Numbered from the stretch's first letter, positions 1 through 31,951 are shown. The stretch: DNA of 64,000 nt from Candidatus Marinacidobacterales bacterium (GCA_965224085.1 CBDCYI010000009.1:628162-692161), one strand, 5' to 3'. Translations and numbers: made by a program. The notes: generated by a model from the sequence alone, not told the origin.

Positions 1-178
1 AACAACGCCGCTCAGCGATGCGAGCGAGAGGGTTGGCGGCACAGAGAGTCGAGGCAAGGATCGGGTGCAAGATTCTCAACACCATGACGGCGCTCGGGAT
101 GCCTGATAGCGAGATGATCGGATGATGGGAGTCGGGGCCAAGCGAGCTCTCGGCCTCTATCGGAGTTGTGCACCGAGG
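1..178 (+). mobile_element. IS5-family element type A, partial right-end copy entering the window. It encodes the last ~41 aa of the DDE transposase (stop near 124) and the right IR (...GGAGTTGTGCACCgAGG).
   Basis: Bases 1-178 match the 3' end of the complete copies at 8398-9480 and 5187-6269. The protein tail ...[34 protein letters not shown] is identical. Confidence 0.85.
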
Positions 179-804
179 CAGCGTCGTCTTGCAGCGAAGG
201 CGAAGGTGTTGAGCAGGGATAGCCTGAATGAAATCGCGGATCCGGTGACGCCGGACACGTTGTTACGCTGGTACACACGGCTCATCGCGAAGAAATACGA
301 CGGGAGCCAGAACCGAGGTCCAGGAAGGCCTCGCGTGGCAGAAACGATACGCGAACTGGTGGTCCGGATGGCGATGGAGAATTCGATCTGGGGCTATACG
401 AGGATTTGCCGGGCTCTCCGCAATCTAGGCCATGACGTCAGCCGAAACACTGTGAAGCGCATCCTCGCGGAGCACGGAATTGAGCCCGCCCCAAAGCGCC
501 GAAAGCGAATCCCGTGGAGTACGTTTCTGAAAGCTCATTGGGGAGCGATCGTGGTGACGGATTTCTTCACGGTAGAAGTACTGACCGCCCGTGGGTTAAT
601 TCGCTACTTCGTGCTTTTCGTCATCGACCTCAAGACGCGCCGCGTGGAGATCGCTGGCATCAGCCCTACGGCGAATGGATGACGCAGCTGGCGCGAAACC
701 TGACCGATGTGCTTGATGGGTTTCTTCGAGACACCCGATTTCTCATCCACGATCGCGACCCGCTGTTTTCAGCGACATTCCGCGCGAGAAGGGCCACTAA
801 TTAA
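179..804 (+). pseudogene. Remnant of an rve/IS481-like DDE integrase-type transposase. Its N-terminus was removed by the IS5-A insertion, it is frameshifted near 660, and it stops early.
   Basis: Two overlapping frames (122-682 and 514-804) together give ...[48 protein letters not shown]...[12 protein letters not shown]...[21 protein letters not shown] / [36 protein letters not shown]. This is the typical HTH plus start of an rve DDE core. Confidence 0.55.
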
Positions 805-3237: not shown

Positions 3238-3472
3238 GCCCGTGCGGGCGGAGGTCATCGGGGAGTGACCGAAATCGTTCGTTCACTCGAAAGTACCCTT
3301 CGCGGGAAGTGTGCAGGAGCGTGTAGTGCGGGAAAGCCGCACGCTGCGTGCGATGTGGCGGGGGCTGGAAACGGACTTACGGTGCGGCTAGTGAGGCACT
3401 CCCACAGGAAACGGGGAGAAACAGATAGGCCGCGCCTACGGAGCACCGCGCCAGCCCTCGACCCTACCGGGA

Positions 3473-3522
3473 GCGTAAGCGCCTCTTTTGCAAAGGGATG
3501 CGTACACATCACCAACAGTAAA
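3473..3522 (+). repeat. Right copy of the direct repeat seen at 2362-2424, lying about 235 bp beyond the IS6 right end.
   Basis: gcgtaagcgcctcttttgcaaagggatgcgtacacatcaccaacagta matches the left copy. Confidence 0.55.
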
Positions 3523-3827
3523 CAGCGCAAGCACCAGCACCGGCCATCGTGCCTCTCTCCTATCCTAGGAGGGCACCGTTCACGATTTTACTTGACCGAC
3601 CGACTTAGTCAGACGTAGGATCCTTAAAGTGGTAATGAAATTCAATTTCAACAGTGCCCAATTGCTGCAGAGACGCCGGGCACACGCTCTACAGAGACGT
3701 CGCCTGTTACGAACGAACGGTGGAGAGGCTGATGAAGTGTTCTAAACCCTGAGGCAAAAAACGCTCGCCGGATGTTGCCACACCCGGCGAGCTTGCACGA
3801 ACGCACGGTCCACAAACCTAATCACAC

Positions 3828-5186
3828 ATGAAGATGCGCGACAACGCTCGCTCACTGCATTTTAGCGGCGAGAGGGTGTGGCGCGCAACTAAGAGGAGTG
3901 CCATGACTCATATCGCTCGGCTTCTATTGTGCTCGACCCTCTTTCTCTCACCCGTCGGCTCGACGCTCGCTGCAGCGGCTGATGAGCAACTCGGCGTGTT
4001 GGTCGTGGCTCATGGCTCGACGGCGGCGTGGAATGCCAACGTCGAAGCCGTGGGGACGATTATTCAACAACACATGCCATCTAAAGCGGCGTACCTGATG
4101 GGTGCGAAGAACCGCACACCGCAGGAGGCGTACGACGAACTGGTCGCGGCTGGTGTCCAGCGGATTGTCGTCGTGCCGCTCCTGGTGTCTTCCTACAACT
4201 CGCACTACGAACAGGTCCGCTTCATTGGCCGCCTTCGCGACGATTACCCGGGCTCCGAACGGATGAAACTCACGCCGCTGCACGGGCCTGCTGACGTTGT
4301 CGACGTTACGCCGGCGCTTGATGCAGATCCGATCCTCGCTGACATCTTGTCCGACCGGGCGCGTGCGCTCAGTCGTGACCCATCCACGGAAAGCCTCGTC
4401 ATCGTGGCACACGGGCCGAACAGCGCCGCAGACGCAGACCGGTGGATGGACGTGATCCGAGAACTTGGTGTCCAAATCCTGTCCCTCGTGCCGTTTAAGG
4501 AGGTCGACGTCCGCCTCTTGCGGGACGATGCGCCCACACCGGTCAAAGACCAGGCGCTCGCGGAGCTCAGACACTCGGTGGCCAACCGTTCAGCGTCGGG
4601 GCGGGTCGTCGTCGTGCCGCTCTTGCTCGGGCCGGGACGCGTCGTCGACCAGATACCCAATGTACTCACTGGATTGGATTACCTCTGGGACGGTCGACCC
4701 GTGCTCCCGGACAGCCGGATCGCTGACTGGGTCATGTTCCAGGTCGAGCATGTATCGGCGCAGCAAGATGCAGCCAGCCGGCAGTCGACAGATGATTTGC
4801 TGACTTTCTTCGATTCCGTGACCGTGACCGCGACGCTCCGGCCGTCGCCGGTACGGGAGATCCCCGGCATGGTGACGGTCGTCGACAGCGAGGTCATTCA
4901 GGCGAGGCTATTCGAGAACCTGTCTGATCTCGTCAAGTACGAACCCGGGGTGTACATCGAAAACAATATGACCCGTCTTGGTCTCAACGGATTCAACATC
5001 CGCGGCATCGGAAGGGATCGCGTGATGACGCAGGTGGACGGCATTCAGACGTCGGAGCAGTTCGACTTCGGGCCTTTCAGCGTGCATCAGCTGGCGCTCG
5101 ATCTCGATGCGTTGAAATCCGTCGAGATCGTGCGGAGTTCCAACTCGGCGCTCTACGGCAGCGATGCCCTCGGCGGCGTGGTGTTG
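3828..5186 (+). pseudogene. 5' portion of a TonB-dependent receptor gene: signal peptide, a tandem CbiX/SirB-like chelatase-fold N-terminal extension, a TonB box (DSVTVTA) and the plug domain. The barrel is lost to the IS5-A insertion at 5187.
   Basis: LGVLVVAHGSTAAW...RIVVVPLLVSSYNSH... and SLVIVAHGPNSA...VVVVPLLLGPGRVVDQIP are CbiX-like repeats. The plug motifs VTVVDSEVIQARLFENLSDLVKYEPGVYIE...GFNIRGIGRDRVMTQVDGI...SVEIVRSSNSALYGSDALGGVV follow. The ORF reads straight into the IS IR. Confidence 0.7.
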
Positions 5187-6269
5187 CCTTGGTGCACAAC
5201 TCCGATAGAGGCCGAGAGCTCGCTTGGCCCCGACTCCCATCACCCGATCATCTCGCTATCAGGCATCCCGAGCGCCGTCATGGTGTTGAGAATCTTGCAC
5301 CCGATCCTTGCCTCGACTCTCTGTGCCGCCAACCCTCTCGCTCGCATCGCTGAGCCCACGATAGCCTTGTAGCGATGGAACGTTGTCTCGACTTTGCTCC
5401 GTTTGCTGTAGCCCGATTCTGTGTGCCACTTTCGTTTGCCGAGCCGAGCTTGTGCTGCAATGTTGCGATTGCGCTGTCGGCTGCTCGCCGGCCCCGATGC
5501 GAGCAGGGCGCCCTTGCGCGGCGGTATCAGCACCCTCGGCGAGCGATGAGCGCTGTGATTCTCGATTGCCTCATAGACGCCGCTGGCGTCGTATGCGGTG
5601 TCAGCTCTGGCCGATGAGATGGGACTGTCGCTCTGTCCGACAAGCGATGCAACCCGCGATGAATCGCGGGCTCTTTTGCTCGTCAGCTCGCCGGCGACGA
5701 CTTCGCCAGTCTGCTCGTCGACACACAGATGGAGCTTGCGATAGTCCCTGCTCTTTTGTGCTCTGCGCAGCTGGCCGGCGTGGACAGCGAGACCGCTGCT
5801 GTCGATCAAGATGTGCAACGGCGTCTTCTGCTTGTCTTGGTAGAAGGGGACCTTACCCAGCTTCGCCTTGCGCCTCGAAATCGTGGTGTGATCGGGCACA
5901 TCATTGTCTAGCTTCATCAGAGCGAACAACGACCGCAGCAATCCCTCGCTCTGCCTAGATGACAGATGAAACACCATGCCCAGGGTGACAGCCGTCTCGA
6001 TGGCGTGGTTCGAGTACTTGCGTTGACGGCCCGGTTTCCTCCTCCTCGGCCGGGGCGCGTCCCAGTTCACAAGCTTGCCGGCGGTGAGCGAGATCCAGAC
6101 GGTCAGGCTCCCACGGTTGCGTAGACCCGCCTCATATTCACGCCAATTCCTCACGCGATAGGCCTTCTTCACATACTTCCGCTGAGTGCGTTTGAAAATG
6201 CTCATGGGGAACCTCGAATCCGTGAGTAAAGGACAATTGTGGACCGAGATCGCGAGTTGTGCACCAAGG
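5187..6269 (-). mobile_element. IS5-family element type A, complete copy (1083 bp) with 16-bp IRs CCTTGGTGCACAACTC.
   Basis: About 99% identical to 8398-9480 in inverted orientation. Terminal IRs are present at both ends. Confidence 0.9.
5240..6205 (-). CDS. IS5-family DDE transposase (type A), 321 aa.
   Basis: MSIFKRTQRKYVKKAYRVRNWREYEAGLRNRGSLTVW...LHILIDSSGLAVHAG...YRKLHLCVDEQTGEVVAGELTS...ADTAYD... is near-identical to the ORF at 8462-9427. Confidence 0.9.
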   Translation of the reverse strand: MSIFKRTQRKYVKKAYRVRNWREYEAGLRNRGSLTVWISLTAGKLVNWDAPRPRRRKPGRQRKYSNHAIETAVTLGMVFHLSSRQSEGLLRSLFALMKLDNDVPDHTTISRRKAKLGKVPFYQDKQKTPLHILIDSSGLAVHAGQLRRAQKSRDYRKLHLCVDEQTGEVVAGELTSKRARDSSRVASLVGQSDSPISSARADTAYDASGVYEAIENHSAHRSPRVLIPPRKGALLASGPASSRQRNRNIAAQARLGKRKWHTESGYSKRSKVETTFHRYKAIVGSAMRARGLAAQRVEARIGCKILNTMTALGMPDSEMIG

Positions 6270-6439
6270 CAACACATTGATGATGCTGTGGATCTACGTT
6301 AACGAGGTCAACAAGATGCTCGCATGGAACAACTTTAACCTCCTGAATTACCTACCGCCATTGGCCTTCTTCATAAGCAGGGATGGTGTTGACAATTAGG
6401 TGGTGCGGACTCCAATTATTTCCGTTTCGTCCATTAACC

Positions 6440-6507
6440 CCAATGGTTGGTGTATGACCAACGCATAGTGTAGGGTAGAAGGTGTATATTTTATTCTACC
6501 TGGAGAG
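6440..6507 (+). promoter_or_regulatory. Putative vapBC promoter/operator: a TATATT -10 element (about 6485-6490) sits inside a perfect 7-bp inverted repeat GGTAGAA...TTCTACC (6474-6500), followed by a GGAGAG RBS.
   Basis: Palindrome read directly from the sequence. An upstream TTGACA is at 6389-6394. Type II antitoxins typically autoregulate through such operators. Confidence 0.45.
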
Positions 6508-6771
6508 ATGGTGATGGGCCTCAACATCAAGAATGACGAAACCTGTCAACTTGCTGGCGAACTGGCGCGGTTGACTGGCGAGACCATGACTGGCGCGATT
6601 ACCGTCGCGCTGCGCGAACGCCTCGAGCGCGAGAAACGCGAGCGCAGCATCGAGGCTCGAGTTCAAGAACTGCGTGCCATCGCAAAGCGCTGTGCCAAGC
6701 TGCTGGGCCCGGGACCCTCGGCCGTGGAGCATGGCGATGTGCTCTACGACGAGCGAGGATTGCCCAAGTGA
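6508..6771 (+). CDS. vapB: Type II antitoxin, VapB-like.
   Basis: Small (87 aa) protein immediately upstream of a PIN toxin, with a 4-bp overlap (GTGA). Confidence 0.75.
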   Translation: MVMGLNIKNDETCQLAGELARLTGETMTGAITVALRERLEREKRERSIEARVQELRAIAKRCAKLLGPGPSAVEHGDVLYDERGLPK

Positions 6772-7154
6772 TCGTCGATAGCTCGGCGGTGCTCGCCGTT
6801 CTGTACCGCGAGCCGGACGCGGAACGCTACGAGACGGCGATCGCCGCTGCCCTGAATTGCCGCATGTCGGTCGCCAATGTGCTGGAGGCATCCATCGTTG
6901 TGGAAGGCCGCGGCGGCGAAGCGGCGGGGCATGAACTCGATGTGTTCCTGGACAAGGCCGGGATCGCGTTGACGCCGGTCATGGTCGAACATATTGAAGC
7001 AGCCCGCTTGGCTTGGCGGCGCTTCGGCAAGGGCAATCACCAGGCGGCGCTGAATTTCGGTGACTGTTTCGCCTACGCGCTCGCGAAAACGACGGGTGAG
7101 CCGCTCCTGTTCAAGGGCAAGGACTTCGCCCAAACAGATATCGAGCCGGCATGA
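6768..7154 (+). CDS. vapC: PIN-domain toxin VapC.
   Basis: MIVDSSAVLAVL...E...D shows PIN acidic residues. It is 128 aa and translationally coupled to the antitoxin. Confidence 0.8.
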   Translation: MIVDSSAVLAVLYREPDAERYETAIAAALNCRMSVANVLEASIVVEGRGGEAAGHELDVFLDKAGIALTPVMVEHIEAARLAWRRFGKGNHQAALNFGDCFAYALAKTTGEPLLFKGKDFAQTDIEPA

Positions 7155-7579
7155 GCGAAAGCCCAGATTATAGCTTCCCTGCCTTGGCGGGCCGCGCGTG
7201 CTGGCAGCGCAGGATCTGAACGAGCTGGTCGCGGAACTCGCCTCGCGACCCGGAGAGACATCGTTTGCTGGCCGCTAAATTAGCGGCGGGCCGAGGTTAT
7301 CCGCGCCTTGCGCAAGCCGCTTCAAATCCTCGGCCAACGCTTCGGTCCGCCCCAGCGGCGACTTCCGGAGCCTGTCCCCTTGCTACACGACCAGCTTGTT
7401 TTTTGTACAGTGAGTTGTTTGAGTTCCTTGTCCGGTTTCGTTATTTGTCCCCTTAGAGTTGTTCGAGGTCTGACCGGCGAATCCGCCACCCGCCGGCCTT
7501 GATTGCCTTGATTGCCTTGATTTTCCCGCTCTTAATTTCCCGCACCAGCCACGCTTTAGGCATTCTGCGCCCGAAGGGT

Positions 7580-8397
7580 GGCGTTGTTGCACCGCTCTTG
7601 GCTGAGCGCGAAATCTACCCTATGGTGGTGGCCGAGGTAATGTTCGACCATGAAGTATCCCAAGCGCAGCCAGTACAAACACGCGAAACAGAAGAAGTAC
7701 CACGTTTCCAACTGGGCGGAATACAACGAAGGGCTGCGCCGCCGGGGCGATTTGACGGTTTGGTTTGACGAGGAGGCAATCGCGAACTGGAAGGCCGACA
7801 AGAGCGGTAAGCTTGGCGGTCAACGGGTCTATTCAGAGATGGCGATTGAAACGGGCCTGGTTGTCCGGATGGTGTACAAGCTTGCCTACCGCCAAACCGA
7901 AGGCTTCTTGCACTCGATCGCCTCGCTTCTCCGGCTGTGTATCGAGATCCCGGACTACTCGACGTTGTGTCGGCGGTCGAGGCTGCTCCGCAAGAAGCTG
8001 CGGATTCGGAAAGCCGCAAGCAATCAACCAATCCACCTGATGATCGATAGCACGGGCTTGAGGATTCATGTTGGAACCACCCGCAAACCGCCAAAGCAGC
8101 GCGCCTGGCGCAAGTTGCACATCGCCGTTGATCGCAAGACCGGCAACATTGTTGCGTCCGAACTGACGGTGTCACGAGCTCGCGACGCAACGCGAGTCCC
8201 CCCTTTGCTAACACAGATTCAAGCACCTATAGCGTCGGTGGCGGCGGACAGTGCATACGACAAGGAAGCGGTCTACGAAGCCATCGAAGCGCACAGCCCT
8301 GAACGAAGGACGCGCGTGGTGATTCCGCCGCAACGAAACGCCACGCTCAGTCAGAATTCGAACACCGCAATGCGGGAACGCGACCGCCATATTCGTG
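7580..8397 (+). mobile_element. IS5-family element type B, 3'-truncated copy (left IR GGCGTTGTTGCACCGC plus 5' 75% of the transposase). It was cut by insertion of IS5-A at 8398.
   Basis: Identical left end and ORF to the full copy at 15884-16969. Homology stops at ...cgccatattcgtgc, where the IS5-A IR begins. Confidence 0.85.
7650..8397 (+). pseudogene. IS5-B transposase, C-terminally truncated (about 249 of 320 aa).
   Basis: MKYPKRSQYKHAKQKKYHVSNWAEYNEGLRRRGDLTVWFDEEAI... matches the 320-aa ORF at 15952-16914 up to ...RERDRHIRA. Confidence 0.85.
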
Positions 8398-9480
8398 CCT
8401 TGGTGCACAACTCGCGATTTCGGTCCACAATTGTCCTTTACTCACGGATTCGAGGTTCCCCATGAGCATTTTCAAACGCACTCAGCGGAAGTATGTGAAG
8501 AAGGCCTATCGCGTGAGGAATTGGCGTGAATATGAGGCGGGTCTACGCAATCGCGGGAGCCTGACCGTCTGGATCTCGCTCACCGCCGGCAAGCTTGTGA
8601 ACTGGGACGCGCCCCGGCCGAGGAGGAGGAAACCGGGCCGTCAACGCAAGTACTCGAACCACGCCATCGAGACGGCTGTCACCCTGGGCATGGTGTTTCA
8701 TCTGTCATCTAGGCAGAGCGAGGGATTGCTGCGGTCGTTGTTCGCTCTGATGAAGCTAGACAATGATGTGCCCGATCACACCACGATCTCGAGGCGCAAG
8801 GCGAAGCTGGATAAGGTCCCCTTCTACCAAGACAAGCAGAAGACGCCGTTGCACATCTTGATCGACAGCAGCGGTCTCGCTGTCCACGCCGGCCAGCTGC
8901 GCAGAGCACCAAATAGCAGGGACTATCGCAAGCTCCATCTGTGTGTCGACGAGCAGACGGGCGAAGTCGTCGCCGGCGAGCTGACGAGCAAAAGAGCCCG
9001 CGATTCATCGCAGGTTGCATCGCTTGTCGGACAGAGCGACAGTCCCATCTCATCGGCCAGAGCTGACACCGCATACGACGCCAGCGGCGTCTATGAGGCA
9101 ATCGAGAATCACAGCGCTCATCGCTCGCCGAGGGTGCTGATACCGCCGCGCAAGGGCGCCCAGCTCGCATCGGGGCCGGCGAGCAGCCGACAGCGCAATC
9201 GCAACATTGCAGCACAAGCTCGGCTCGGCAAACGAAAGTGGCACACAGAATCGGGCTACAGCAAACGGAGCAAAGTCGAGACAACGTTCCATCGCTACAA
9301 GGCTATCGTGGGCTCAGCGATGCGAGCGAGAGGGTTGGCGGCACAAAGAGTCGAGGCAAGGATCGGGTGCAAGATTCTCAACACGATGACGGCGCTCGGG
9401 ATGCCTGATAGCGAGATGATCGGATGATGGGAGTCGGGGCCAAGCGAGCTCTCGGCCTCTATCGGAGTTGTGCACCAAGG
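8398..9480 (+). mobile_element. IS5-family element type A, complete copy (1083 bp).
   Basis: IRs CCTTGGTGCACAACTC at both ends. It is inserted into IS5-B on one side and into hsdS on the other. Confidence 0.9.
8462..9427 (+). CDS. IS5-family DDE transposase (type A), 321 aa.
   Basis: Same protein as 5240-6205 with about 5 aa differences. Confidence 0.9.
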   Translation: MSIFKRTQRKYVKKAYRVRNWREYEAGLRNRGSLTVWISLTAGKLVNWDAPRPRRRKPGRQRKYSNHAIETAVTLGMVFHLSSRQSEGLLRSLFALMKLDNDVPDHTTISRRKAKLDKVPFYQDKQKTPLHILIDSSGLAVHAGQLRRAPNSRDYRKLHLCVDEQTGEVVAGELTSKRARDSSQVASLVGQSDSPISSARADTAYDASGVYEAIENHSAHRSPRVLIPPRKGAQLASGPASSRQRNRNIAAQARLGKRKWHTESGYSKRSKVETTFHRYKAIVGSAMRARGLAAQRVEARIGCKILNTMTALGMPDSEMIG

Positions 9481-10693
9481 CAGAGTCGTTCCGGTTCTTG
9501 GGTCAAACGGACGCGTGGGTTTTCATAATGCAGCGAACACAAAGGCTCCTTGCATCGTGATCGGACGAAAGGGATCGTTCGGGAAGGTAAACTATTCTGA
9601 ACGCCCTGTGTTTGCAATCGATACAACTTTCTTTGTGGATAACCGTTTTTCATCAGCTCATATTCGGTGGCTTTTTTTCCTCTTTGGTTGGCTTCGTCTG
9701 GATGAGGTAACGAGAGACTCAGCGGTACCTGGTCTCGACCGGGAGGATGCTTACCAGAAGCTCATAGTAGTGCCTCCTTTTTCAGAGCAAGCCGCCATCG
9801 TCCGCTACCTCGACCATGCGGATCGTCGCATCCAGCGCTACATCCGCGCCAAGCAGAAGCTGATCACGCTGCTGGAGGAGCAGAAGCAGGCCATCATCCA
9901 GCGCGCCGTGACGCGCGGCCTCGACCCCAACGTCCGCCTCAAGCCCTCCGGCGTGGAGTGGCTGGGGAAAGTGCCGACGCATTGGGAAAGGCGAAGACTG
10001 AAGATTCTTCTCCGACCGGTTGACCGACGATCTGCCACTGGAGCGGAGACACTCCTGTCGTTGCGACGAGACCACGGAATCGTTATTTACGCTGAGCACT
10101 TCGCCAGACCTTCACAGAGCAGGTCCTTGGTGGGGTTTAAGCTCGTTGCCGTGGGTCAGCTAGTCGTCAACCGTCTCCAGGCTAACAATGGGTTGGTCTT
10201 TTGCTCGGGTATTAACGGGCTCGTGAGCCCTGACTACTCTGTGTTCGAGATGAGAAAACCACTCCAGATGCAGTACCTGAGCGATCTTCTTAGAACTTCT
10301 CGCTATCGTTCGCACTTCCGGCGAGAGTCCACAGGGCTCGGTACTGGGACCGCAGGTTTTCTACGACTTTATGACGACAAATTTCTTGAGACGGAAGTGT
10401 TCTTGCCGCCAGTACAGGAGCAGATTCTGATATCCAACTCACTCGCAAACGATATTGCCAAAGTCAAGCGTCTGATGGAACAACAGCAGCGGCAGCTACA
10501 GTTCTTTAATGAGTTCCGAACTCGGCTGATTACCGATGTCGTTACCGGCAAGCTCGATGTGCGGGAGGCGGCCTCCCGGCTGCCGGACGAGGTCGAGGAA
10601 CCGGAGCCGCTAGACGAGACCGACGCCCTCACCGACGGCGAGGAAGAGCCCACCGACGATCGCGACGCCGCCCCCGAAGAGGCCGCGGTGTGA
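9481..10693 (+). pseudogene. hsdS: Type I R-M specificity subunit HsdS with its N-terminal part removed. It keeps the end of target-recognition domain 1, the central conserved region, target-recognition domain 2 and the C-terminal coiled coil. Truncated by IS5-A.
   Basis: ...VPVLGSNGRVGFHNAANTKAPCIVIGRKGSFGKV...PPFSEQAAIVRYLDHADRRIQRYIRAKQKLITLLEEQKQAIIQRAVTRGLDPNVRLKPSGVEWLGKVPTHWE... shows classic HsdS conserved spacers. The reading frame starts inside the IS IR. Confidence 0.8.
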
Positions 10694-13692
10694 CGACCGA
10701 CACCAGTGAACGCGGCCTCGAACGGCTGATCTGCACCGCCCTGACCGGTAGTTCCTGCGATGCCGCGTTGGCGCAGGCAGGCTTGGAAGACGAAGCCGCC
10801 ACCCCCTCGGACGGGGTCGGCTGGATCTGCGGCGCCCCCAACGACTACGACCGCGAGTACACGGTCGATCTGGCGCAGCTCCTCGCGTTCCTGGTCGAAA
10901 CGCAACCGGATGCGTTCGAGGGGCTGCGTCTCGAAGACGATGGCCCAGCACGCCGGAAGTTCCTGGCCCGCCTCCAAGGTGAGGTCCGCAAGCGCGGCAT
11001 CATCGACGTACTCCGCAAAGGGGTCAAGGACGGGCCGCATCACGTCGAGCTCTTCTACGGCACGCCGTCTTCCGGCAACCCACTCGCCGCTGAACGCTAC
11101 GCCCAGAACCGCTTCTCGGTCAGGCGCCAGCTCCGCTACAGCCGCGACGAGACCCAGCGGGCGCTCGATCTCGGGCTGTTCATCAACGGCCTGCCGGTTG
11201 CCACGTTCGAGCTGAAGAACAGTCTCACCAAGCAGACGGTCGAGGACGCCGTGGAGCAGTACAAGCGTGACCGCGACCCGCGCGAGAAGCTCTTCGAGTT
11301 CGGCCGCTGCGTGGCGCACTTCGCGGTGGACGACCGCGCGGTGCAATTCTGCACGCACCTCAATGGAAAGGGCTCGTGGTTCCTGCCCTTCGACCAGGGC
11401 TGGAACGACGGCGCCGGCAACCCGCCGAATCCGAACGGTCTCAAGACCGACTACCTGTGGAAGCGGATTCTCACCCGCGACGGGCTGACCGACATCCTGG
11501 AGAACTACGCGCAGGTCGTCGAAACCAAGGATGAGAAGACGGGCAAGAAGAAGAGGAAGGTGCAGATCTGGCCGCGCTACCACCAACTCGATGTGGTGCG
11601 ACGGCTGCTGGCTGACACGCGCCGACACGGCGCAGGGAAGCGGTATCTCATCCAGCACTCGGCCGGCAGCGGGAAGTCGAACTCCATCGCCTGGCTCGCC
11701 CACCAGTTGATCGGGCTCAGGAAGGACGCCGCCGGGGTGTTCGACTCCATCATCGTGGTCACGGACAGACGCATTCTCGACCAGCAGATCTGCGCCACGA
11801 TCAAACAGTTCGCCCAGGTCGGGGCCACCGTCGGCCATGCCGAACGCTCGGCTAACCTCCGTGCGTTTATCGAGGGCGGCAAGAAGATCATCATCTCGAC
11901 GGTGCAGAAGTTCCCGTTCATCCTCGACGAGATCGGAAACGAGCAACGGGGCCGGCGCTTCGCCATCATCATTGACGAGGCGCATTCGAGCCAGACCGGC
12001 AAGACCTCGGCAGCGGTCAGCGTGGCGCTCTCCGAGGCGGGCGCTGCCGAGGATGATGAGACCACCGAGGACACGATCAACCGCATCATGGCTGCTCGGA
12101 GACTTCTCCCGAACGCGAGCTACTTCGCCTTCACCGCCACGCCCAAGAACAAGACGCTGGAGATCTTCGGCGAGGCGTACGACGCGGGCGGCCAGACCAG
12201 GCACCGCCCCTTCCACAGCTACACCATGAAGCAGGCGACCCAGGAGGGCTTCATCCTAGACGTGCTGCGGCACTACACGCCAGTCGAGAGCTACTACAAG
12301 CTCATCAAGAAGGTCGAGGAGGATCCCGAGTTCGACACCAAGCGCGCCCGGAAGAAGCTGCGCCGCTACGTGGAGGGCCACGATTATGCCATCCGGCTCA
12401 AGGCCGAGATCATGGTGGACCACTTCCACGAACAGGTGCTGGCGCTCAACAAGATCGGAGGCAAGGCTCGCGCGATGGTGGTGACGGGAGGCATCGAGCG
12501 CGCGATTCAGTATTACCACGCAATCCGGCAGTACCTTCTGGAGCACAAGAGCCGGTATCAGGCCATCGTCGCCTTCTCAGGCGAGCACGAGTATGGCGGG
12601 GTGCAGGTCAGTGAGTCGTCCCTCAATGGCTTCCCGTCCGGGCGGATCGCTGACAAGATCCAGCAGGACCCGTATCGGTTCCTCATTTGTGCCGACAAGT
12701 TTCAGACCGGGTACGACGAGCCACTGTTGCACACGATGTACGTGGACAAGATCTTGTCCGGGATCAAGGCGGTCCAGACGCTGTCGCGTCTCAATCGGGC
12801 GCACCCGCAGAAACACGACGCGTTCGTGCTCGATTTCATGAACGATGCCGACACCATCCAGGAGGCGTTCGCTGACTACTACCGGACGACGGTCCTGAGC
12901 GAGGAGACCGATCCCAACAAGCTGCACGACCTCAAGGCCGCGCTCGATGGCTACCAGGTGTATGCCGACGCAGAGATCGACCAGCTCGTGACGCTCTACC
13001 TGGGTGGGGCCGACCGCGACCAGCTCGACCCCATCCTCGACGCCTGCGTCGCGGTCTACAAGGAACGGCTCGACGAGGACGGGCAGGTGGACTTCAAGGG
13101 CAAGGCCAAGGCGTTCGAGCGCGCGTACGGCTTCCTCGCCTCAATCCTGCCGTACACGCACGCCGAGTGGGAGAAGCTCTCTATCTTCCTGAACTTCCTT
13201 GTGCCGAAGCTTTCCGCGCCTGTGGAAGAGGATCTGTCCAAAGGCATCCTTGAGTCCATCGACATGGACAGCTACCGGGTCGAGAAGAAGGCGGCGAGAC
13301 ACGTCCAACTGGCGGACGAGAACGCCGAGATCAAGCCGGTTCCGACTAACGGCGGCGGCCACAGGCCGGAACCCGAACTCGACCGCCTCTCGAACATCCT
13401 CAAGACCTTCAACGACCAGTTCGGGAACATTCCCTGGACCGACGGCGACCGCGTCCACCGGCTCATCACGGAGGACATCCCGAACCGAGTGGCGGCCGAC
13501 CGGGCCTACCAGAACGCCAAGCAGAACTCCGACAAGCAGAACGCGCGGATCGAGCACGACAAGGCGCTCCGGCGGGTGATGACGGCGCTGCTGCAGGACG
13601 ACACGGAGTTGTTCAAGCAGTTCAGCGACAACGAGTCGTTCCGGCGGTGGCTGACGGACACGATCTTCTCGATCACCTACGAGGCTGCGTAG
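10690..13692 (+). CDS. hsdR: Type I restriction endonuclease subunit HsdR, 1000 aa, apparently intact.
   Basis: HsdR N-domain (FATFELKNSLTKQTVEDAVEQYKRDRDP...), helicase motif I (QHSAGSGKSN), DEAH (IIIDEAHSSQTG), and a 4-bp overlap with hsdS (GTGTGA). Confidence 0.9.
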   Translation: MTTDTSERGLERLICTALTGSSCDAALAQAGLEDEAATPSDGVGWICGAPNDYDREYTVDLAQLLAFLVETQPDAFEGLRLEDDGPARRKFLARLQGEVRKRGIIDVLRKGVKDGPHHVELFYGTPSSGNPLAAERYAQNRFSVRRQLRYSRDETQRALDLGLFINGLPVATFELKNSLTKQTVEDAVEQYKRDRDPREKLFEFGRCVAHFAVDDRAVQFCTHLNGKGSWFLPFDQGWNDGAGNPPNPNGLKTDYLWKRILTRDGLTDILENYAQVVETKDEKTGKKKRKVQIWPRYHQLDVVRRLLADTRRHGAGKRYLIQHSAGSGKSNSIAWLAHQLIGLRKDAAGVFDSIIVVTDRRILDQQICATIKQFAQVGATVGHAERSANLRAFIEGGKKIIISTVQKFPFILDEIGNEQRGRRFAIIIDEAHSSQTGKTSAAVSVALSEAGAAEDDETTEDTINRIMAARRLLPNASYFAFTATPKNKTLEIFGEAYDAGGQTRHRPFHSYTMKQATQEGFILDVLRHYTPVESYYKLIKKVEEDPEFDTKRARKKLRRYVEGHDYAIRLKAEIMVDHFHEQVLALNKIGGKARAMVVTGGIERAIQYYHAIRQYLLEHKSRYQAIVAFSGEHEYGGVQVSESSLNGFPSGRIADKIQQDPYRFLICADKFQTGYDEPLLHTMYVDKILSGIKAVQTLSRLNRAHPQKHDAFVLDFMNDADTIQEAFADYYRTTVLSEETDPNKLHDLKAALDGYQVYADAEIDQLVTLYLGGADRDQLDPILDACVAVYKERLDEDGQVDFKGKAKAFERAYGFLASILPYTHAEWEKLSIFLNFLVPKLSAPVEEDLSKGILESIDMDSYRVEKKAARHVQLADENAEIKPVPTNGGGHRPEPELDRLSNILKTFNDQFGNIPWTDGDRVHRLITEDIPNRVAADRAYQNAKQNSDKQNARIEHDKALRRVMTALLQDDTELFKQFSDNESFRRWLTDTIFSITYEAA

Positions 13693-13792
13693 AGGGCTCG
13701 GGCTCCCGAGCTGGCTGACGAGGGAGGGCGCGAGTACCCGCTCAAGCATTGCCGGACCCTGATTGAGGCCGAATCCGAGGCAAGTAAGGACA

Positions 13793-14116
13793 CCAAGGAG
13801 GCCCAAGCCCACCTGGACCAGAACGTGCTAGCCGGCTACGCCACGGTAGCCCTGGCCTCGATGTTGGACCCCTCGGGTGACCTCTTTTCCGATGCCGTAC
13901 GGCCCGGTCAGCGCCTGTTCTCCTACTTTGCGCAAACGTGGCACTCGAAAATCGCGATTAGAGACGAAACCCGAAAATGACGCCAGTTCAGCCCTTCCAG
14001 TGCGTCTCTGGTGCCACCTACCCCTGCAAAACCCCGCCAACCGCGCGGAAAATCTCATCCGTCTCTGCAGTGCCACAATTTGCAAGACTGGGTGGCGGAT
14101 GGCGCAGTCTGGAGCT
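13793..14116 (+). repeat. Copy R1 of a ~320-bp sequence that natively flanks the 3' end of tRNA-Ser (compare 40878-41196). It ends in ...gggtggcgga, which is the last 7 nt of the tRNA (TCCGCCA) on the other strand.
   Basis: About 85% identity to 40878-41196. The boundary falls exactly at tRNA position -7 from the 3' end. Confidence 0.8.
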
Positions 14117-14277
14117 ATCCGGTCTCTGGGTTTATGGGCAGTTATGGGCAGTCTCTAAAAAGGGCAGAGTTTCAAGCCGGTCATCGACCCTCCACAGGCC
14201 GACGTCGAACTCGAAGTACTATTTGCACCATACGCTGATCCGACTCGAAGCAGATCTGGCTCTAGAGTTTCCGTGCT

Positions 14278-14505
14278 GTCTGGTCCGCCACCAAGTCCGG
14301 CCAATTGCGGCACTGCAGAGACGGGCGGGATTTTCCACGCGGTTGGCGGGGTTTTGCAGGATTAAGTGGCACCAGAGACGCGCTAGAAGGGCTGAAAAGG
14401 CCTCATTTTCGGTTTTGGTCTCTAATCGCTATTTTCGAGTGCCACGTTTGCGCCCAAATAGGAGAACGGGCGCTGACAGGGCCGTGCCGCGTCGGAAAAG
14501 AGGCC
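14278..14505 (-). repeat. Copy R3, inverted relative to R1. It starts with the tRNA 3'-end fragment (tccgccacc) and runs about 225 bp until it is cut by the IS110 end.
   Basis: The reverse complement of 14290-14470 matches 13925-14100 and 41020-41190. R1 and R3 form a large inverted repeat around a 161-bp spacer (14117-14277). Confidence 0.8.
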
Positions 14506-14512
14506 GCCCGAG

Positions 14513-15867
14513 GGTACTTTCGACTGACACTCCCGGCCGAAGGCATTTTTCATGATATGGATTGATCGGGAACGAGGCTGAAGCCGAGTCGGGTAGCTTT
14601 GCGTCGGAGATTACTCAGGAGGCGTTGCTGGTATTGCCTTTCATAGGCGTCCTGACCGAGCTCAATGAACTCCTCTCCAGTCGCAAGCATGCGGAAGTAG
14701 ATGGTCGCTATTTTACGGGCGGTAGCTGTGATGGCCTTTGGAGCACCTCGTCGCGATCGGATTCGTCGATAGAAAGCGCCGAGCGCGGTTTGGGTATTGC
14801 GGACAGCGCACGCGGCGAGGCGAAAGAGTTTTGCAGCACGACTGGAGCTCATTGGGGTGGCCCGGCGAAAGATTCGACCAGCGGACTCCTTATTATTCGG
14901 TGCGAGAGCTAGCCATGAGGTGAAGTGCTTGTCACTTTTCCACGGGCTCATGTCGCAACCGGTTTCTCCTACGAGCTGCAGAACGGCATAGCTACCTAAG
15001 CCGGGAACCCTGGTTAGGTCCACCCCCGTGAGTCCCAATAGAGACTCAGCGAGCGGAAAGCGCGGCCCGTTGCCGCTACGCGCTCGCCGTGTCCGTGGTT
15101 TCGGCTTAGGCCGAGCGTCCTGAGGCCGGGTCTCCAATTTGGACAGGCATCTCTCGATCCGCTTGTCACAGTCTTCCATTTTCTCTTGATAGAAATCGTA
15201 CAACTCCACCGACTGTTGAAGAGCGAAAACATGCTCGCTCCGATAGTTACCTTCTAAGGCTTTCGCGATCGTGGCCTCATCGTTGTGGCAACGTTCATGC
15301 CTCAGTTTTGCTAGGTCACGAGGATCTCGCTCTCCTCTCAAGATCGCTCGGATGATCGCAAGGCCGGTGACTCCGGTCACGTCGCGCAGGACGTGTTGTA
15401 GCTGGAGCCCCATTTGGTTGAGCGCTTTGTGCATATGCTGAATGTGGCGAGCCGCTGACTCCACCAGCGAGCTTCGTTGGCGGGTGTATGCCCTTAGCTC
15501 GCAAATCGCCGATTCCGGCCGAAAGGTTTTTGGGAGTAGCCCGAATGTATGCAGCTGTTGCAGCCACTCCGCATCCGACACGTCTGACTTGCGCCCAGAT
15601 ACGTTTTTCACTTTGCGAGCATCGACCAGATAGACTTCAAATCCCTCGTCTTCCAACAACTCGTACAGTGGAATCCAATAAACTCCGGTCGACTCCATCG
15701 CCACCGTGCACACGCCGCACGCCTTCAGCCAATTGGCCAGCTCTCGCAGCGAGCATACAAAGCTCTGAAACGTGCGGACATGTTCGCCCTCAGGAGTGCG
15801 CCCCTTCGGGACTGCCGCCACGATTGACTCCGCTCCAATATCAATCCCTGCAGCATCTAGATTTACC
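14513..15867 (-). mobile_element. IS110-family element type a, 1355 bp, with no obvious IRs and very short non-coding ends.
   Basis: Identical in length and about 99% in sequence to 20102-21456. Its ends were defined by where the two copies diverge from their flanks (...gtcgaaagtacc / ggtaaatctag...). Confidence 0.8.
14550..15866 (-). CDS. IS110-family (DEDD) transposase, about 438 aa. The true start codon is uncertain.
   Basis: ...NLDAAGIDIGAESIVAAVPKG... (N-terminal DEDD region) ...TGVYWIPLYELLEDEGFEVYLVDARKVKNVSGRKSDVSDAEWLQQL... C-terminal transposase_20-like region. Confidence 0.8.
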   Translation of the reverse strand, partial: VNLDAAGIDIGAESIVAAVPKGRTPEGEHVRTFQSFVCSLRELANWLKACGVCTVAMESTGVYWIPLYELLEDEGFEVYLVDARKVKNVSGRKSDVSDAEWLQQLHTFGLLPKTFRPESAICELRAYTRQRSSLVESAARHIQHMHKALNQMGLQLQHVLRDVTGVTGLAIIRAILRGERDPRDLAKLRHERCHNDEATIAKALEGNYRSEHVFALQQSVELYDFYQEKMEDCDKRIERCLSKLETRPQDARPKPKPRTRRARSGNGPRFPLAESLLGLTGVDLTRVPGLGSYAVLQLVGETGCDMSPWKSDKHFTSWLALAPNNKESAGRIFRRATPMSSSRAAKLFRLAACAVRNTQTALGAFYRRIRSRRGAPKAITATARKIATIYFRMLATGEEFIELGQDAYERQYQQRLLSNLRRKATRLGFSLVPDQSIS

Positions 15868-15883: not shown

Positions 15884-16969
15884 GCGTTGTTGCACCGCTC
15901 TTGGCTGAGCGCGAAATCTACCTATGGTGGTGGCCGAGGTAATGTTCGACCATGAAGTATCCCAAGCGCAGCCAGTACAAGCACGCGAAGCAGAAGAAGT
16001 ACCACGTTTCCAACTGGGCGGAATACAACGAAGGGCTGCGCCGCCGGGGCGATTTGACGGTCTGGTTTGACGAGGAGGCAATCGCGAACTGGAAGGCCGA
16101 CAAGAGCGGTAAGCCTGGCGGTCAACGGGTCTATTCAGAGATGGCGATTGAAACGGGCCTGGTTGTCCGGATGGTGTACAAGCTTGCCTACCGCCAAACC
16201 GAAGGCTTCTTGCACTCGATCGCCTCGCTTCTCCGGCTGTGTATCGAGATCCCGGACTACTCGACGTTGTGTCGGCGGTCGAGGCTGCTCCGCAAGAAGC
16301 TGCGGATTCGGAAAGCCGCAAGCAATCAACCAATCCACCTGATGATCGATAGCACGGGCTTGAGGATTCATGTTGGAACCACCCGCAAACCGCCAAAGCA
16401 GCGCGCCTGGCGCAAGTTGCACATCGCCGTTGATCGCAAGACCGGCAACATTGTTGCGTCCGAACTGACGGCGTCACGAGCTCGCGACGCAACGCGAGTC
16501 CCCCCTTTGCTAACACAGATTCAAGCACCTATAGCGTCGGTGGCGGCGGACAGTGCATACGACAAGGAAGCGGTCTACGAAGCCATCGAAGCGCACAGTC
16601 CTGGACGAAGGACGCGCGTGGTGATTCCGCCGCAACGAAACGCCACGCTCAGTCAGAATTCGAACACCGCCATGCGGGAACGCGACCGCCATATTCGTGC
16701 AATCGAAAGACACGGCCGACGTGAATGGTACAAGCTCTCAGGCTGCACCGAGCGAAGCATGGTGGAGAACGCGGTCTATCGTTACAAGGCGATCATGGGG
16801 CCCGAGATGCGGGCTCGAACGTTGGCGAGGCAACGAGTTGAACACCGAATTGGGTGCGAGATACTCAACAAGATGACCGCGCTCGGCATGCCCGATACTT
16901 ACTGCGCCGGGTGACTCTCCGACCGGCACAGGGAGGTCAGCGATTTGCTCCGGGCCGTGCAACAACGCC
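15884..16969 (+). mobile_element. IS5-family element type B, full-length reference copy (1086 bp) with IRs GGCGTTGTTGCAC(C/G)GC.
   Basis: Left and right IRs found. Three other copies in the window share the ends. Confidence 0.9.
15952..16914 (+). CDS. IS5-family DDE transposase (type B), 320 aa.
   Basis: Same architecture as the type A transposase (KRSQYKHAKQKKYHVSNWAEYNEGLRRRGDLTVW...). Intact ORF. Confidence 0.9.
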   Translation: MKYPKRSQYKHAKQKKYHVSNWAEYNEGLRRRGDLTVWFDEEAIANWKADKSGKPGGQRVYSEMAIETGLVVRMVYKLAYRQTEGFLHSIASLLRLCIEIPDYSTLCRRSRLLRKKLRIRKAASNQPIHLMIDSTGLRIHVGTTRKPPKQRAWRKLHIAVDRKTGNIVASELTASRARDATRVPPLLTQIQAPIASVAADSAYDKEAVYEAIEAHSPGRRTRVVIPPQRNATLSQNSNTAMRERDRHIRAIERHGRREWYKLSGCTERSMVENAVYRYKAIMGPEMRARTLARQRVEHRIGCEILNKMTALGMPDTYCAG

Positions 16970-17184
16970 ACGACGATGTGAAGTCCAGGCTACGCGTACG
17001 TGCGGCGGGTAACGGCCGTTCCATGGAAGAGGAGGCGCGCTTGATCCTCCGGGATGCGGTCGAACGCAGGCCGAGTTCCAATAACCTCGCAGACATCATC
17101 CGCGCGCACTTCGGGCCATCCAAGGGCGTGGATCTGGAGTTGCCACCGCGCGATGCGGGCCGAGAGCCACCGTCCTTCGATTGA
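16970..17184 (+). CDS. StbC/FitA-like ribbon-helix-helix antitoxin that has lost about its first 10 codons to the IS5-B insertion. The remaining frame starts inside the IS right IR.
   Basis: ...DDVKSRLRVRAAGNGRSMEEEARLILRDAVERRPSSNNLADIIRAHFG... matches plasmid-stability/VapB-type antitoxins, which begin M..LTIRNLDDEVK. Confidence 0.65.
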
Positions 17185-17194
17185 GGGAACGACC

Positions 17195-17617
17195 ATGTTT
17201 CTCCTGGATACCAACGTCGTATCCGAGTTGATGCGTACGTCGCCGGACTCCGCAGTCGAGGCATGGATTGCCGGCCACCCCGTCAAGGACCTGTTCTTCT
17301 CGGCGATTGGCGAATCCGAACTGCGCTATGGAGCCGCGATCATGCCGGTAGGCCAGCGCCGTGAAACGCTCGTCTCTGATATCGAGACGATGCTGCACGC
17401 TGCCTTCGAAAACCGCATATCGCCGTTCGACAGCGGGGCGGCGCGTGCTTATGCGAATATCGCCGCCAAGCGCCGGGGCGCAGGACGTGCCGTCGCTCCG
17501 GCGGACTGCCAGATCGCAGCGATTGCCCGGGCACGCGGCATGGCGGTGGCGACGCGCGACGTTCGAGACTTCGAGGATATGGGGGTCGAACTCTTCAATC
17601 AATGGGACGGCGCATGA
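17195..17617 (+). CDS. vapC: PIN-domain toxin VapC (second copy).
   Basis: MFLLDTNVVSELMRTSP...AIGESELRYGAAIMPVGQRRETL...CQIAAIARARGMAVATRDVRDFEDMGVELFNQWDG; PIN catalytic D/E residues. Confidence 0.85.
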   Translation: MFLLDTNVVSELMRTSPDSAVEAWIAGHPVKDLFFSAIGESELRYGAAIMPVGQRRETLVSDIETMLHAAFENRISPFDSGAARAYANIAAKRRGAGRAVAPADCQIAAIARARGMAVATRDVRDFEDMGVELFNQWDGA

Positions 17618-17860: not shown

Positions 17861-18199
17861 GGCTCTTCAGCAAAAAGTCGATCCAGCGGTACGCGATCTT
17901 CTTTTTTGCGGATCACAACTAAGCTGCTGATTTATGATCTATTTCAAAAAGGCCGAGTTTTGGCACAGGACGGGGCCTGCTTACAAGTTTTTGGAATCGC
18001 GGGTCTTGAGTTCGTTTATGTTTTTGGACACCACGGGATTGGAAACATGCCGACCTTCTCCGGCTGAACCAAGGTAAGATTGTCAGTGCCGTAACCGACG
18101 AGGAGGTCGGAGTCTACAACTTGGTCCATACTCCCTATCGGCCGGCGTAGCCTTAGAGAGCTCCCCCTGAGAGTCTGAAATCAAGGAAGGTCCCACCCG

Positions 18200-20101: not shown

Positions 20102-21419
20102 GGTAAATCTAGATGCTGCAGGGATTGATATTGGAGCGGAGTCAATCGTGGCGGCAGTCCCGAAGGGGCGCACTCCTGAGGGCGAACATGTCCGCACGTT
20201 TCAGAGCTTTGTATGCTCGCTGCGAGAGCTGGCCAATTGGCTGAAGGCGTGCGGCGTGTGCACGGTGGCGATGGAGTCGACCGGAGTTTATTGGATTCCA
20301 CTGTACGAGTTGTTGGAAGACGAGGGATTTGAAGTCTATCTGGTCGATGCTCGCAAAGTGAAAAACGTATCTGGGCGCAAGTCAGACGTGTCGGATGCGG
20401 AGTGGCTGCAACAGCTGCATACATTCGGGCTACTCCCAAAAACCTTTCGGCCGGAATCGGCGATTTGCGAGCTAAGGGCATACACCCGCCAACGAAGCTC
20501 GCTGGTGGAGTCAGCGGCTCGCCACATTCAGCATATGCACAAAGCGCTCAACCAAATGGGGCTCCAGCTACAACACGTCCTGCGCGACGTGACCGGAGTC
20601 ACCGGCCTTGCGATCATCCGAGCGATCTTGAGAGGAGAGCGAGATCCTCGTGACCTAGCAAAACTGAGGCATGAACGTTGCCACAACGATGAGGCCACGA
20701 TCGCGAAAGCCTTAGAAGGTAACTATCGGAGCGAGCATGTTTTCGCTCTTCAACAGTCGGTGGAGTTGTACGATTTCTATCAAGAGAAAATGGAAGACTG
20801 TGACAAGCGGATCGAGAGATGCCTGTCCAAATTGGAGACCCGGCCTCAGGACGCTCGGCCTAAGCCGAAACCACGGACACGGCGAGCGCGTAGCGGCAAC
20901 GGGCCGCGCTTTCCGCTCGCTGAGTCTCTATTGGGACTCACGGGGGTGGACCTAACCAGGGTTCCCGGCTTAGGTAGCTATGCCGTTCTGCAGCTCGTAG
21001 GAGAAACCGGTTGCGACATGAGCCCGTGGAAAAGTGACAAGCACTTCACCTCATGGCTAGCTCTCGCACCGAATAATAAGGAGTCCGCTGGTCGAATCTT
21101 TCGCCGGGCCACCCCAATGAGCTCCAGTCGTGCTGCAAAACTCTTTCGCCTCGCCGCGTGCGCTGTCCGCAATACCCAAACCGCGCTCGGCGCTTTCTAT
21201 CGACGAATCCGATCGCGACGAGGTGCTCCAAAGGCCATCACAGCTACCGCCCGTAAAATAGCGACCATCTACTTCCGCATGCTTGCGACTGGAGAGGAGT
21301 TCATTGAGCTCGGTCAGGACGCTTATGAAAGGCAATACCAGCAACGCCTCCTGAGTAATCTCCGACGCAAAGCTACCCGACTCGGCTTCAGCCTCGTTCC
21401 CGATCAATCCATATCATGA
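20082..21419 (+). CDS. IS110-family (DEDD) transposase, 445 aa as predicted. The ATG comes from the flanking 33-bp repeat.
   Basis: MSILTSRVNLDAAGIDIGAESIVAAVPKGR... is identical to the copy at 14550-15866. Confidence 0.8.
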   Translation: MSILTSRVNLDAAGIDIGAESIVAAVPKGRTPEGEHVRTFQSFVCSLRELANWLKACGVCTVAMESTGVYWIPLYELLEDEGFEVYLVDARKVKNVSGRKSDVSDAEWLQQLHTFGLLPKTFRPESAICELRAYTRQRSSLVESAARHIQHMHKALNQMGLQLQHVLRDVTGVTGLAIIRAILRGERDPRDLAKLRHERCHNDEATIAKALEGNYRSEHVFALQQSVELYDFYQEKMEDCDKRIERCLSKLETRPQDARPKPKPRTRRARSGNGPRFPLAESLLGLTGVDLTRVPGLGSYAVLQLVGETGCDMSPWKSDKHFTSWLALAPNNKESAGRIFRRATPMSSSRAAKLFRLAACAVRNTQTALGAFYRRIRSRRGAPKAITATARKIATIYFRMLATGEEFIELGQDAYERQYQQRLLSNLRRKATRLGFSLVPDQSIS

Positions 21420-21456
21420 AAAATGCCTTCGGCCGGGAGTGTCAGTCGAAAGTACC
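20102..21456 (+). mobile_element. IS110-family element type a, second copy (1355 bp), inserted into an IS256-like transposase gene.
   Basis: Same ends as the copy at 14513-15867. The right end abuts the truncated IS256-like ORF at 21460-21783. Confidence 0.8.
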
Positions 21457-21459
21457 TTC

Positions 21460-28783: not shown

Positions 28784-31951
<3,168 letters not shown>

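Follow-up and report, generated by a model that had tools for sequence, protein, structure and literature searches.

Does a toxin–antitoxin operon enclosed by two near-identical insertion sequences (IS) represent the cargo of a composite transposon, or is it what rearrangement has left standing? The question is raised by a 4.3-kb segment in a 64,000-nt stretch of DNA from Candidatus Marinacidobacterales bacterium (GCA_965224085.1 CBDCYI010000009.1:628162-692161; hereafter, the window), where two inverted copies of one element, IS5-A, flank a vapBC module and part of a second element, IS5-B. An initial annotation of the window proposed either a composite transposon or IS-mediated deletions. We found that the anatomy is indeed Tn903-like and that a rearrangement history fits the locus, but movement as a unit was not borne out. 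In the reading we favour, to which we give about an even chance, the segment is a scar that rearrangements have left around a vapBC30-like locus of the chromosome, and not a transposon caught after a jump. The window itself is chromosomal, with glycine cleavage genes and peptidases.

Junctions of the IS5-A pair

Alignment of 85 IS5-A copies sets the ends of the element at TGCCTT...AAGGCA. With these ends, the inverted repeat arms span positions 5185-6271 (minus strand) and 8396-9482 (plus strand), 1087 nt each with a spacing of 2124 nt. The initial annotation had placed both copies correctly, although its limits (5187-6269 and 8398-9480) fall 2 bp short on each side; its estimate of about 99% identity holds, the copies differing at 13 of 1087 positions (98.8% identity). 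All four ends carry perfect 18-bp terminal inverted repeats (TGCCTTGGTGCACAACTC), and the transposase open reading frames (ORFs) of the left (5240-6205) and right (8462-9427) copies are predicted to be intact, with 321 aa each and 316/321 residues identical. The left copy turns its R end toward a TonB-dependent receptor gene and its L end toward vapBC, and the right copy its L end toward the truncated IS5-B and its R end toward a truncated hsdS. With such ends, the segment could in principle be mobilised by its outer repeats.

Two intact, inverted copies with perfect ends are structurally competent to form a true Tn903-like composite. Such a composite would have arisen around vapBC at its native locus and jumped into the receptor gene or hsdS, and a later rearrangement would have erased the duplication and replaced one flank. 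We consider this course of events unlikely; it takes at least one event more than a route by rearrangement only, and the outer flanks are two different truncated genes. Pfam and homologues identify these flanks, as had been described, as the 5' part of a TonB-dependent receptor gene on the left and an N-terminally truncated hsdS on the right.

At the right flank, hsdS (9483-10693, plus strand) lacks approximately its first 50 codons (Pfam Methylase_S from profile position 47), and the IS5-A target 9-mer GAGTCGTTC lies at 9483-9491. An empty site for this junction is present in two related contigs, L092 (position 8152) and L093 (position 4794), where hsdM, a DUF8426 gene and the 5' part of hsdS lie upstream and hsdS reads ...aaggacg GAGTCGTTC cggttcttggg... 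unbroken; both sequences are 99% identical to the window from 9483 onward. The far side of the unit in the window is occupied by the receptor fragment and not by hsdM-DUF8426-hsdS 5'. Hence, removal of the unit restores no target, and the earlier observation that the missing part of hsdS is not across the unit stands.

At the left flank, the receptor gene (3903-5184, plus strand; Pfam CbiX and Plug) is cut directly after ...SDALGGVV and lacks its beta-barrel part. Homologues run on from ...SDALGGVV with SLFTKDPADY... into the barrel, and NCBIfam TonB receptor models match the window fragment over the first ~125 positions only. No intact close orthologue of the receptor was found, nor any empty site for the break after ...GGVV; the nearest relatives are only 74-83% identical, are degraded themselves and lie in IS-rich regions with no hsd genes nearby. 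At each IS5-A copy, the DNA at the inner (L) end is unrelated to the gene at the outer end.

Family and target sites of IS5-A

By its predicted protein and its ends, IS5-A belongs to the IS903 group of the IS5 family. Its transposase, scored on the right copy, matches Pfam DDE_Tnp_1_5 and DDE_Tnp_1 as well as NCBIfam NF033579 (239 bits versus a cut-off of 140). It aligns to IS903B over 98% of its length (33% identity, E 1e-36), and IS5-A has the sizes of the group: a single ORF of ~310-320 aa, an element of ~1.05-1.1 kb and repeats of ~18 bp. An exact-sequence look-up of the left-copy transposase returned no record. The IS5-A ends TGCCTTGGTGCAC align with the IS5-B ends GGCGTTGTTGCAC, and both resemble the IS903 end (GGCTTTGTTG).

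Since IS5-A is an IS903-group element, the target duplication to expect is 9 bp and not, as first assumed, 4 bp. A direct repeat of any length is absent at the outer and inner junctions of the segment, in agreement with the initial annotation. The 9-mers at the outer (GCGTGGTGT and GAGTCGTTC) and inner (ACACATTGA and CCATATTCG) junctions agree at 5/9 positions in each pair, which is the chance level (attained by 12% of random copy pairs). Such agreement is common in random pairs because IS5-A favours a palindromic target; the preferred motif, sCG sCGnnnCGs CGs, reaches 3 bp past either end of the 9-bp duplication. No 9-bp repeat was found among the four window junctions in any pairing. A wider search, in which both direct and inverted duplications of 1-12 bp were allowed any offset within 40 bp, found none at the window copies or at 82 others.

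IS5-A copies across the host lineage

In a scan of species-representative genomes, near-identical IS5-A copies were found almost exclusively in metagenome-assembled genomes (MAGs) of Candidatus Marinacidobacterales (Acidobacteriota, Vicinamibacteria). The best 80 loci were kept (L008-L087; MAGs OZ250169, CBDFNJ01 and others), yielding 82 full-length copies with their flanks. Among these loci, at least 36 copies fall in one 8.1-Mb chromosome and at least 39 in another MAG. Close pairs are common among the ~80 copies: two direct, ~1.3 kb apart, and inverted ones 3.3 and 6.9 kb apart.

None of the 82 full-length copies has a flanking repeat of its own, and their best matches are no better than those of shuffled pairs. 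An absent duplication therefore says little about any single IS5-A copy. It is equally uninformative about a composite, given that solitary copies lack a duplication too and that direct repeats are reported to be absent from one Tn903-like composite (PMC5294582). We found six exact 9-bp matches that join the L flank of one IS5-A copy to the R flank of another (chance expectation ~0.03; zero in each of three reverse-complement control comparisons). IS5-A thus does make 9-bp duplications, the halves of which are now on different copies. Partner pairs that share a contig are inverted in four of four cases and lie 21-376 kb apart. Joining partner flanks in silico restored ORFs of 394, 396 and 507 aa, and a single FmdA_AmdA (acetamidase/formamidase) domain alignment crosses one rejoined junction. 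The partner copies differ by 0, 0, 2, 3, 3 and 5 nt (versus within-genome medians of 6 and 8.5), and reciprocal 9-mer matches are seen in none of the six pairs.

Such splitting of duplication halves between inverted copies matches the signature reported for IS26 when it transposes replicatively within one molecule (PMC4471558). IS903, in turn, transposes both replicatively and conservatively and makes adjacent deletions (PMC11708052). Overall, the data suggest that IS5-A spreads mainly by intramolecular replicative transposition in Ca. Marinacidobacterales.

Homologous recombination might produce much of the same picture. IS5-A would have inserted simply into the receptor gene, the DUF6602 gene, IS5-B and hsdS, and RecA-dependent recombination would then have swapped flanks by inversions and deletions. 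The many copies of 98-99% identity per genome (at least 36 and 39, as counted above) offer ample substrate, recombination of inverted copies likewise splits duplication halves and leaves the copies inverted, and IS-IS recombination is a recognised cause of missing duplications (PMC11708052). However, it would have to be saturating to leave none of the 82 copies with its own duplication, and a first round of recombination predicts reciprocal matches, none of which were seen. Recombinant partners are also expected to be as different as random copies, yet the partners are markedly more alike (Fisher combination, p ~3e-4). We regard saturating recombination as a weaker alternative to replicative transposition, possible but rather doubtful. 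As controls for duplication loss by recombination, an IS with an rve-type transposase and IS5-B provide only 3-4 full copies each, which is too few. Whichever route applies, IS5-A copies in the host lineage are routine rearrangement breakpoints.

Could the junctions be an artefact of assembly, that is, a mis-join across collapsed IS5-A copies? Many IS copies are 98-99% identical, and unrelated flanks at every copy would also be expected from random mis-joins. By exact-protein look-up, the locus lies in ENA assembly ERZ25067264, on contig ctg836333_45x_l of 1.48 Mb, and the identical arrangement (99.9% over 4.7 kb) is found on contig ctg246125_29x_l (8.7 Mb) of ERZ25072076, from a second sample. 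This agreement between assemblies of two samples supports rearrangement. Each window IS5-A has private substitutions and so is not collapsed. Mis-joins would give random orientation, in contrast to the uniformly inverted same-contig pairs, and partner copies are sister-like in sequence. Because the two samples agree, the partner pairs are inverted and the partner copies are sister-like, a mis-join is very unlikely.

A one-step origin, in which a single intramolecular replicative transposition would have produced the second copy in inverse orientation and flipped the vapBC segment, can be read directly against the flanks. Two inverted copies around a short segment have the product geometry of such an event (PMC4471558), but the event predicts that the R flank of the left copy equals the L flank of the right copy, or that the L flank of the left copy equals the R flank of the right copy. 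Neither is true (ACACCACGC versus CCATATTCG and TCAATGTGT versus GAGTCGTTC, respectively). Moreover, with 13 differences, above the median of 10 for random pairs, the left and right copies are not sisters, and the nearest relatives of the left copy, at 7-9 differences, are in other genomes. Barring a later overwriting of both junctions, the mismatched 9-mers refute a one-step origin, which we consider improbable in the extreme. The same 13 differences speak against a composite, as a similarity this high or higher is seen in 81% of random copy pairs.

The vapBC module and its other contexts

The core of the segment is a predicted VapBC30-like type II toxin–antitoxin module, a close relative of Mycobacterium tuberculosis VapBC30. 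The antitoxin gene vapB (6508-6771, plus strand) encodes 87 aa, or 85 aa from the start at 6514 chosen by gene callers; its product matches Pfam PSK_trans_fac (E 2.6e-25) and M. tuberculosis VapB30 (PDB 4XGQ_B, E 8e-12 over 84 residues). The start of vapC (6768-7154, plus strand; 128 aa) overlaps the vapB stop (GTGA). VapC matches Pfam PIN (E 2e-16) and VapC30 (4XGQ_A, E 6e-39 over 126/128 residues), and its D4, E40 and GDCF motif align with VapC30. VapC belongs to a very large family, in which over 7,600 proteins reach E <= 1e-20.

The content between the IS5-A copies had been given as only a putative promoter/operator, vapB, vapC and the 5' three-quarters of IS5-B. The two genes and the partial IS5-B are there, but the segment also contains remnants of two other genes. 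Next to the left IS5-A copy lies the 3' end of a DUF6602 gene (6272-6399, plus strand), comprising the last 41 codons and the stop of a protein that has 274 aa where intact; homology to L004 and L005 begins exactly at 6272, and the L005 translation ends ...TLMMLWIYVNEVNKMLAWNNFNLLNYLPPLAFFISRDGVDN. The AT-rich spacer that follows (6400-6507; GC 0.44 over 6300-6499) is the presumed promoter region of vapB. The promoter/operator was not confirmed: promoter and palindrome scans revealed neither a sigma-70-like site nor a palindrome. Searches of the region for terminators, Rfam families and tRNA genes were negative too. Downstream of vapC, ~400 bp of non-coding DNA (7155-7555) are conserved over their whole length in L001, L004 and L005, and up to 7378 in L003. 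Then come the last 8 codons of a 114-aa gene (7556-7579, minus strand), the remainder of which is replaced by IS5-B; orf114 of L005 and the window ORF 7556-7801 both end ...ATLRAQNA before the stop.

IS5-B is a second IS903-group element, with a transposase 49% identical to that of IS5-A. Positions 1-816/818 of its 1087 are retained (7580-8395/8398, plus strand). The break between IS5-B and IS5-A is ambiguous by 4 nt because TGCC at 8396-8399 is common to the IS5-B sequence and the IS5-A end, an overlap that could be chance (1 in 256) or microhomology.

Eight contigs, which represent five distinct contexts, encode an identical VapC of 128 aa. All five contexts share, at 99.6-99.8% identity, a 977-bp core (window 6402-7378) made up of 106 bp upstream of vapB, vapB, vapC and 224 bp downstream; the VapB and VapC amino-acid sequences are the same throughout, and the three single-nucleotide polymorphisms in vapC are all synonymous. 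The initial annotation regarded a vapBC region without IS5-A flanks at this position in relatives as the mark of independent IS insertions plus deletions. We found the vapBC block without the IS5-A pair in four other contexts (L001, L003, L004 and L005; 98.7-99.9% identity). In L004 and L005, the block is uninterrupted and leads on the left to an intact or longer DUF6602 gene and on the right to the 114-aa gene. In the window, this homology breaks off precisely where the left IS5-A copy has its inner end (6272) and where IS5-B starts (7580). vapBC was originally located between the DUF6602 gene and the 114-aa gene, and IS5-B inserted in the 3' end of the latter. The DUF6602 5' part was not found as a called protein from the source contigs.

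Other strains show further breakpoints close by, with independent IS breaks on the left. In L003, an IS5-A of opposite orientation has its breakpoint at 6392, and a further break is at 7378; in L001, an IS with an rve-type transposase breaks the homology at 6402. A sixth context of low coverage, L090, has an IS5-A within vapC at codon 32 (window-equivalent 6863), with DUF6602 and vapB intact. Over all six contexts, the breakpoints cluster to the left of vapBC (6272, 6392 and 6402) and to its right (7378 and 7580), and vapB is disrupted in none. Three of the five other contexts (the four without the pair plus L090) retain longer, unbroken neighbours. As a separate observation, L090 (5292-12075) has a second, direct IS5-A 3.3 kb further on, and the two bracket an intact 964-aa TonB-dependent receptor gene.

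These contexts also bear on the composite. The 3' remnants of DUF6602 and orf114 show that the cargo has been cut off from its native context, which speaks for a composite. However, among the 8 contigs with identical VapC the IS5-A pair occurs in one context only. The initial annotation had proposed a search for the same unit at other loci or in other genomes. In JGI metagenomes, scans with the IS5-A/DUF6602 junction and with the start of vapB gave 0 matches each, and PLSDB plasmids contained no DNA match.

A proposed rearrangement history for the segment

In the rearrangement history that we favour, the receptor gene and hsdS would each have harboured one IS5-A copy, that of hsdS at target GAGTCGTTC. 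Each inner junction would then stem from a one-step intramolecular replicative transposition of a resident copy. The L end of the left copy would have hit ACACATTGA in DUF6602 and that of the right copy CCATATTCG in IS5-B, and the intervening DNA would have been deleted (adjacent deletion) or inverted away. Both events may have converged on vapBC and halted there, since products that lose vapB or its promoter would kill the cell, so that the toxin–antitoxin core would survive as an island between breakpoints. We infer the first part of this history from the junctions described above together with the other IS5-A copies.

Several points weigh against this history. The replicative route is suggested by other IS5-A copies and not by the window pair, and the similarity of partner copies could in part come from homologous recombination that favours identical copies. 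A pure two-deletion history needs the order receptor, vapBC, hsd, which was seen in no relative. The missing DNA may have been either deleted or relocated. A search for partner junctions that covered all fetched loci found none of the four (ACACCACGC joined to TGCCTTGG, CCAAGGCA to TCAATGTGT, CCAAGGCA to CCATATTCG and GAGTCGTTC to TGCCTTGG); they stand for the receptor barrel half, the DUF6602 5' part, the last 269 bp of IS5-B and hsdM-DUF8426-hsdS 5'. The survivorship part, with vapBC as a putative barrier to deletion, draws on the six contexts and on general toxin–antitoxin biology, with VapC presumed to be toxic. Finally, every sequence used comes from a metagenome assembly, in some cases with a coverage of 3-7x.

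A broader proposal can be made, which we hold only tentatively and think less probable than not: IS5-A may spread and reshape the chromosome almost exclusively via intramolecular replicative transposition, with toxin–antitoxin cores acting as deletion barriers that end up as islands pinned between breakpoints. On this proposal, no copy would have its own duplication because IS5-A moves almost only intramolecularly. If it is true, the composite appearance of the vapBC segment would be a by-product of survivorship, and toxin–antitoxin modules should be enriched near IS copies genome-wide.

Comparison with known systems

The segment has counterparts among described systems. Tn903 and pirAB-Tn903 of Vibrio (PMC5294582) also consist of two inverted IS903-group copies (~1.05-1.09 kb, 18-bp repeats, one ORF) around a short cargo, and pirAB-Tn903 likewise lacks flanking direct repeats. 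In contrast to Tn903, the window pair is known from one context, gives no evidence of movement, differs internally at 13 positions and has two unrelated truncated genes as outer flanks. Its cargo is a toxin–antitoxin pair with a dead IS and two gene stubs, and its transposase is 33% identical to that of IS903B.

IS26-bracketed segments (PMC4471558) look like composite transposons as well, and they share with IS5-A copies without their own duplications, duplication halves on different inverted copies, and split genes that can be rejoined in silico. However, IS5-A belongs to the IS5/IS903 group and not to IS6, its duplication is 9 bp and not 8 bp, its host is the chromosome of an uncultured acidobacterium whereas IS26 is known from resistance plasmids, and the window pair is no one-step product. 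Adjacent deletions by IS903 (PMC11708052) similarly leave an IS end abutting DNA unrelated to the interrupted gene, without a duplication; for IS5-A they are deduced from sequence, and the pattern holds for all 82 copies examined.

The module shares with VapBC30 (Rv0623/Rv0624, PDB 4XGQ) the order of antitoxin then toxin and the overlapping stop and start, but its host is an uncultured acidobacterium and its activity is predicted. In Tn3-family transposons (PMC7157771), type II modules are also physically linked to transposition genes. There, however, the module sits inside a unit transposon beside resolvase and transposase genes and recurs across many elements, whereas here the association is one of a single locus. 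The association of vapBC with IS in the window is most likely a product of rearrangements.

In a genome saturated with IS, the segment is an ordinary outcome of their activity, and the IS903-group element, the VapBC30-like module and the IS-bracketed segment are all of known kinds. Calling it a transposon would overstate the evidence. For an IS with dozens to hundreds of copies, an inverted pair around a gene without a duplication is expected rearrangement debris, and in such IS-rich genomes cargo capture needs a second context or a restored target. The by-products of the analysis are of more interest, namely the lack of own duplications in all 82 copies, the split halves on inverted sister-like copies and the breakpoints that fall around vapB but never into it. 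Together, this pattern offers a gauge of genome scrambling and trimming by IS903-type elements that uses sequence only, and it asks whether toxin–antitoxin modules limit such trimming.

Flanking genes and other features of the window

Downstream of hsdS, the window retains an intact hsdR (10690-13692, plus strand; 1000 aa; Pfam HSDR_N, SWI2_SNF2, ResIII, T1R_D3-like) without hsdM, and the type I restriction locus is for this reason probably inactive. In relatives, the locus is ordered hsdM - DUF8426 (349 aa) - hsdS (L092 4970-9893, L093 1612-6535). In L091 (5930-11003), hsdS-hsdR follows a GmrSD_C gene, with no hsdM in the vicinity. L091, with an hsdR of ~94% DNA identity, was considered as an empty site and ruled out by its different hsdS allele. 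An 11-nt flank that seemed common to L092 and the receptor junction of the window proved to be BLAST extension through mismatches. As for the receptor, L089 (8001-9668, P0001), from another sample, has an 83%-identical CbiX-Plug homologue that is also broken (...SDALGA), no more than two codons away from the break in the window and beside a Transposase_mut fragment.

The mobile elements of the window comprise IS5-A, IS5-B, IS110-, IS6-, IS91- and IS4-type copies or fragments and an HTH_32/HTH_21 transposase-gene fragment. A third IS5-A copy is reduced to its last 171 bp (10-180, plus strand) and is cut on the left by an IS5-B end (1-9). On its right, this copy adjoins the truncated HTH_32/HTH_21 transposase gene, the elements being nested within window positions 1-800; its remainder is not beyond the IS5-B copy in L002.

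A second PIN toxin–antitoxin pair, a FitA-like RHH antitoxin with a VapC-like PIN protein, lies at 16945-17617. It begins where an IS5-B copy ends (16969), and this copy appears to have taken away the first ~10 antitoxin codons. The pair is bracketed by two inverted IS110-family copies (14510-15867 and 20102-21459) that are 100% identical. A direct repeat of at least 300 bp, 100% identical (24528-24827 and 25093-25392, spacing 565 bp), is near an IS110-type transposase gene (23758-24792). A diverged (~79%) duplication, 29205-31659 versus 35170-37621, covers Sortilin/BNR-repeat proteins of ~1055-1068 aa with the neighbouring M24 peptidases. Short repeats of 57-390 bp and 85-100% identity were found at 3295-3543, 13741-14126, 14284-14514, 17918-17975 and 40890-41193 and in many fetched loci, and may be elements resembling miniature inverted-repeat transposable elements (MITE-like) or IS ends.

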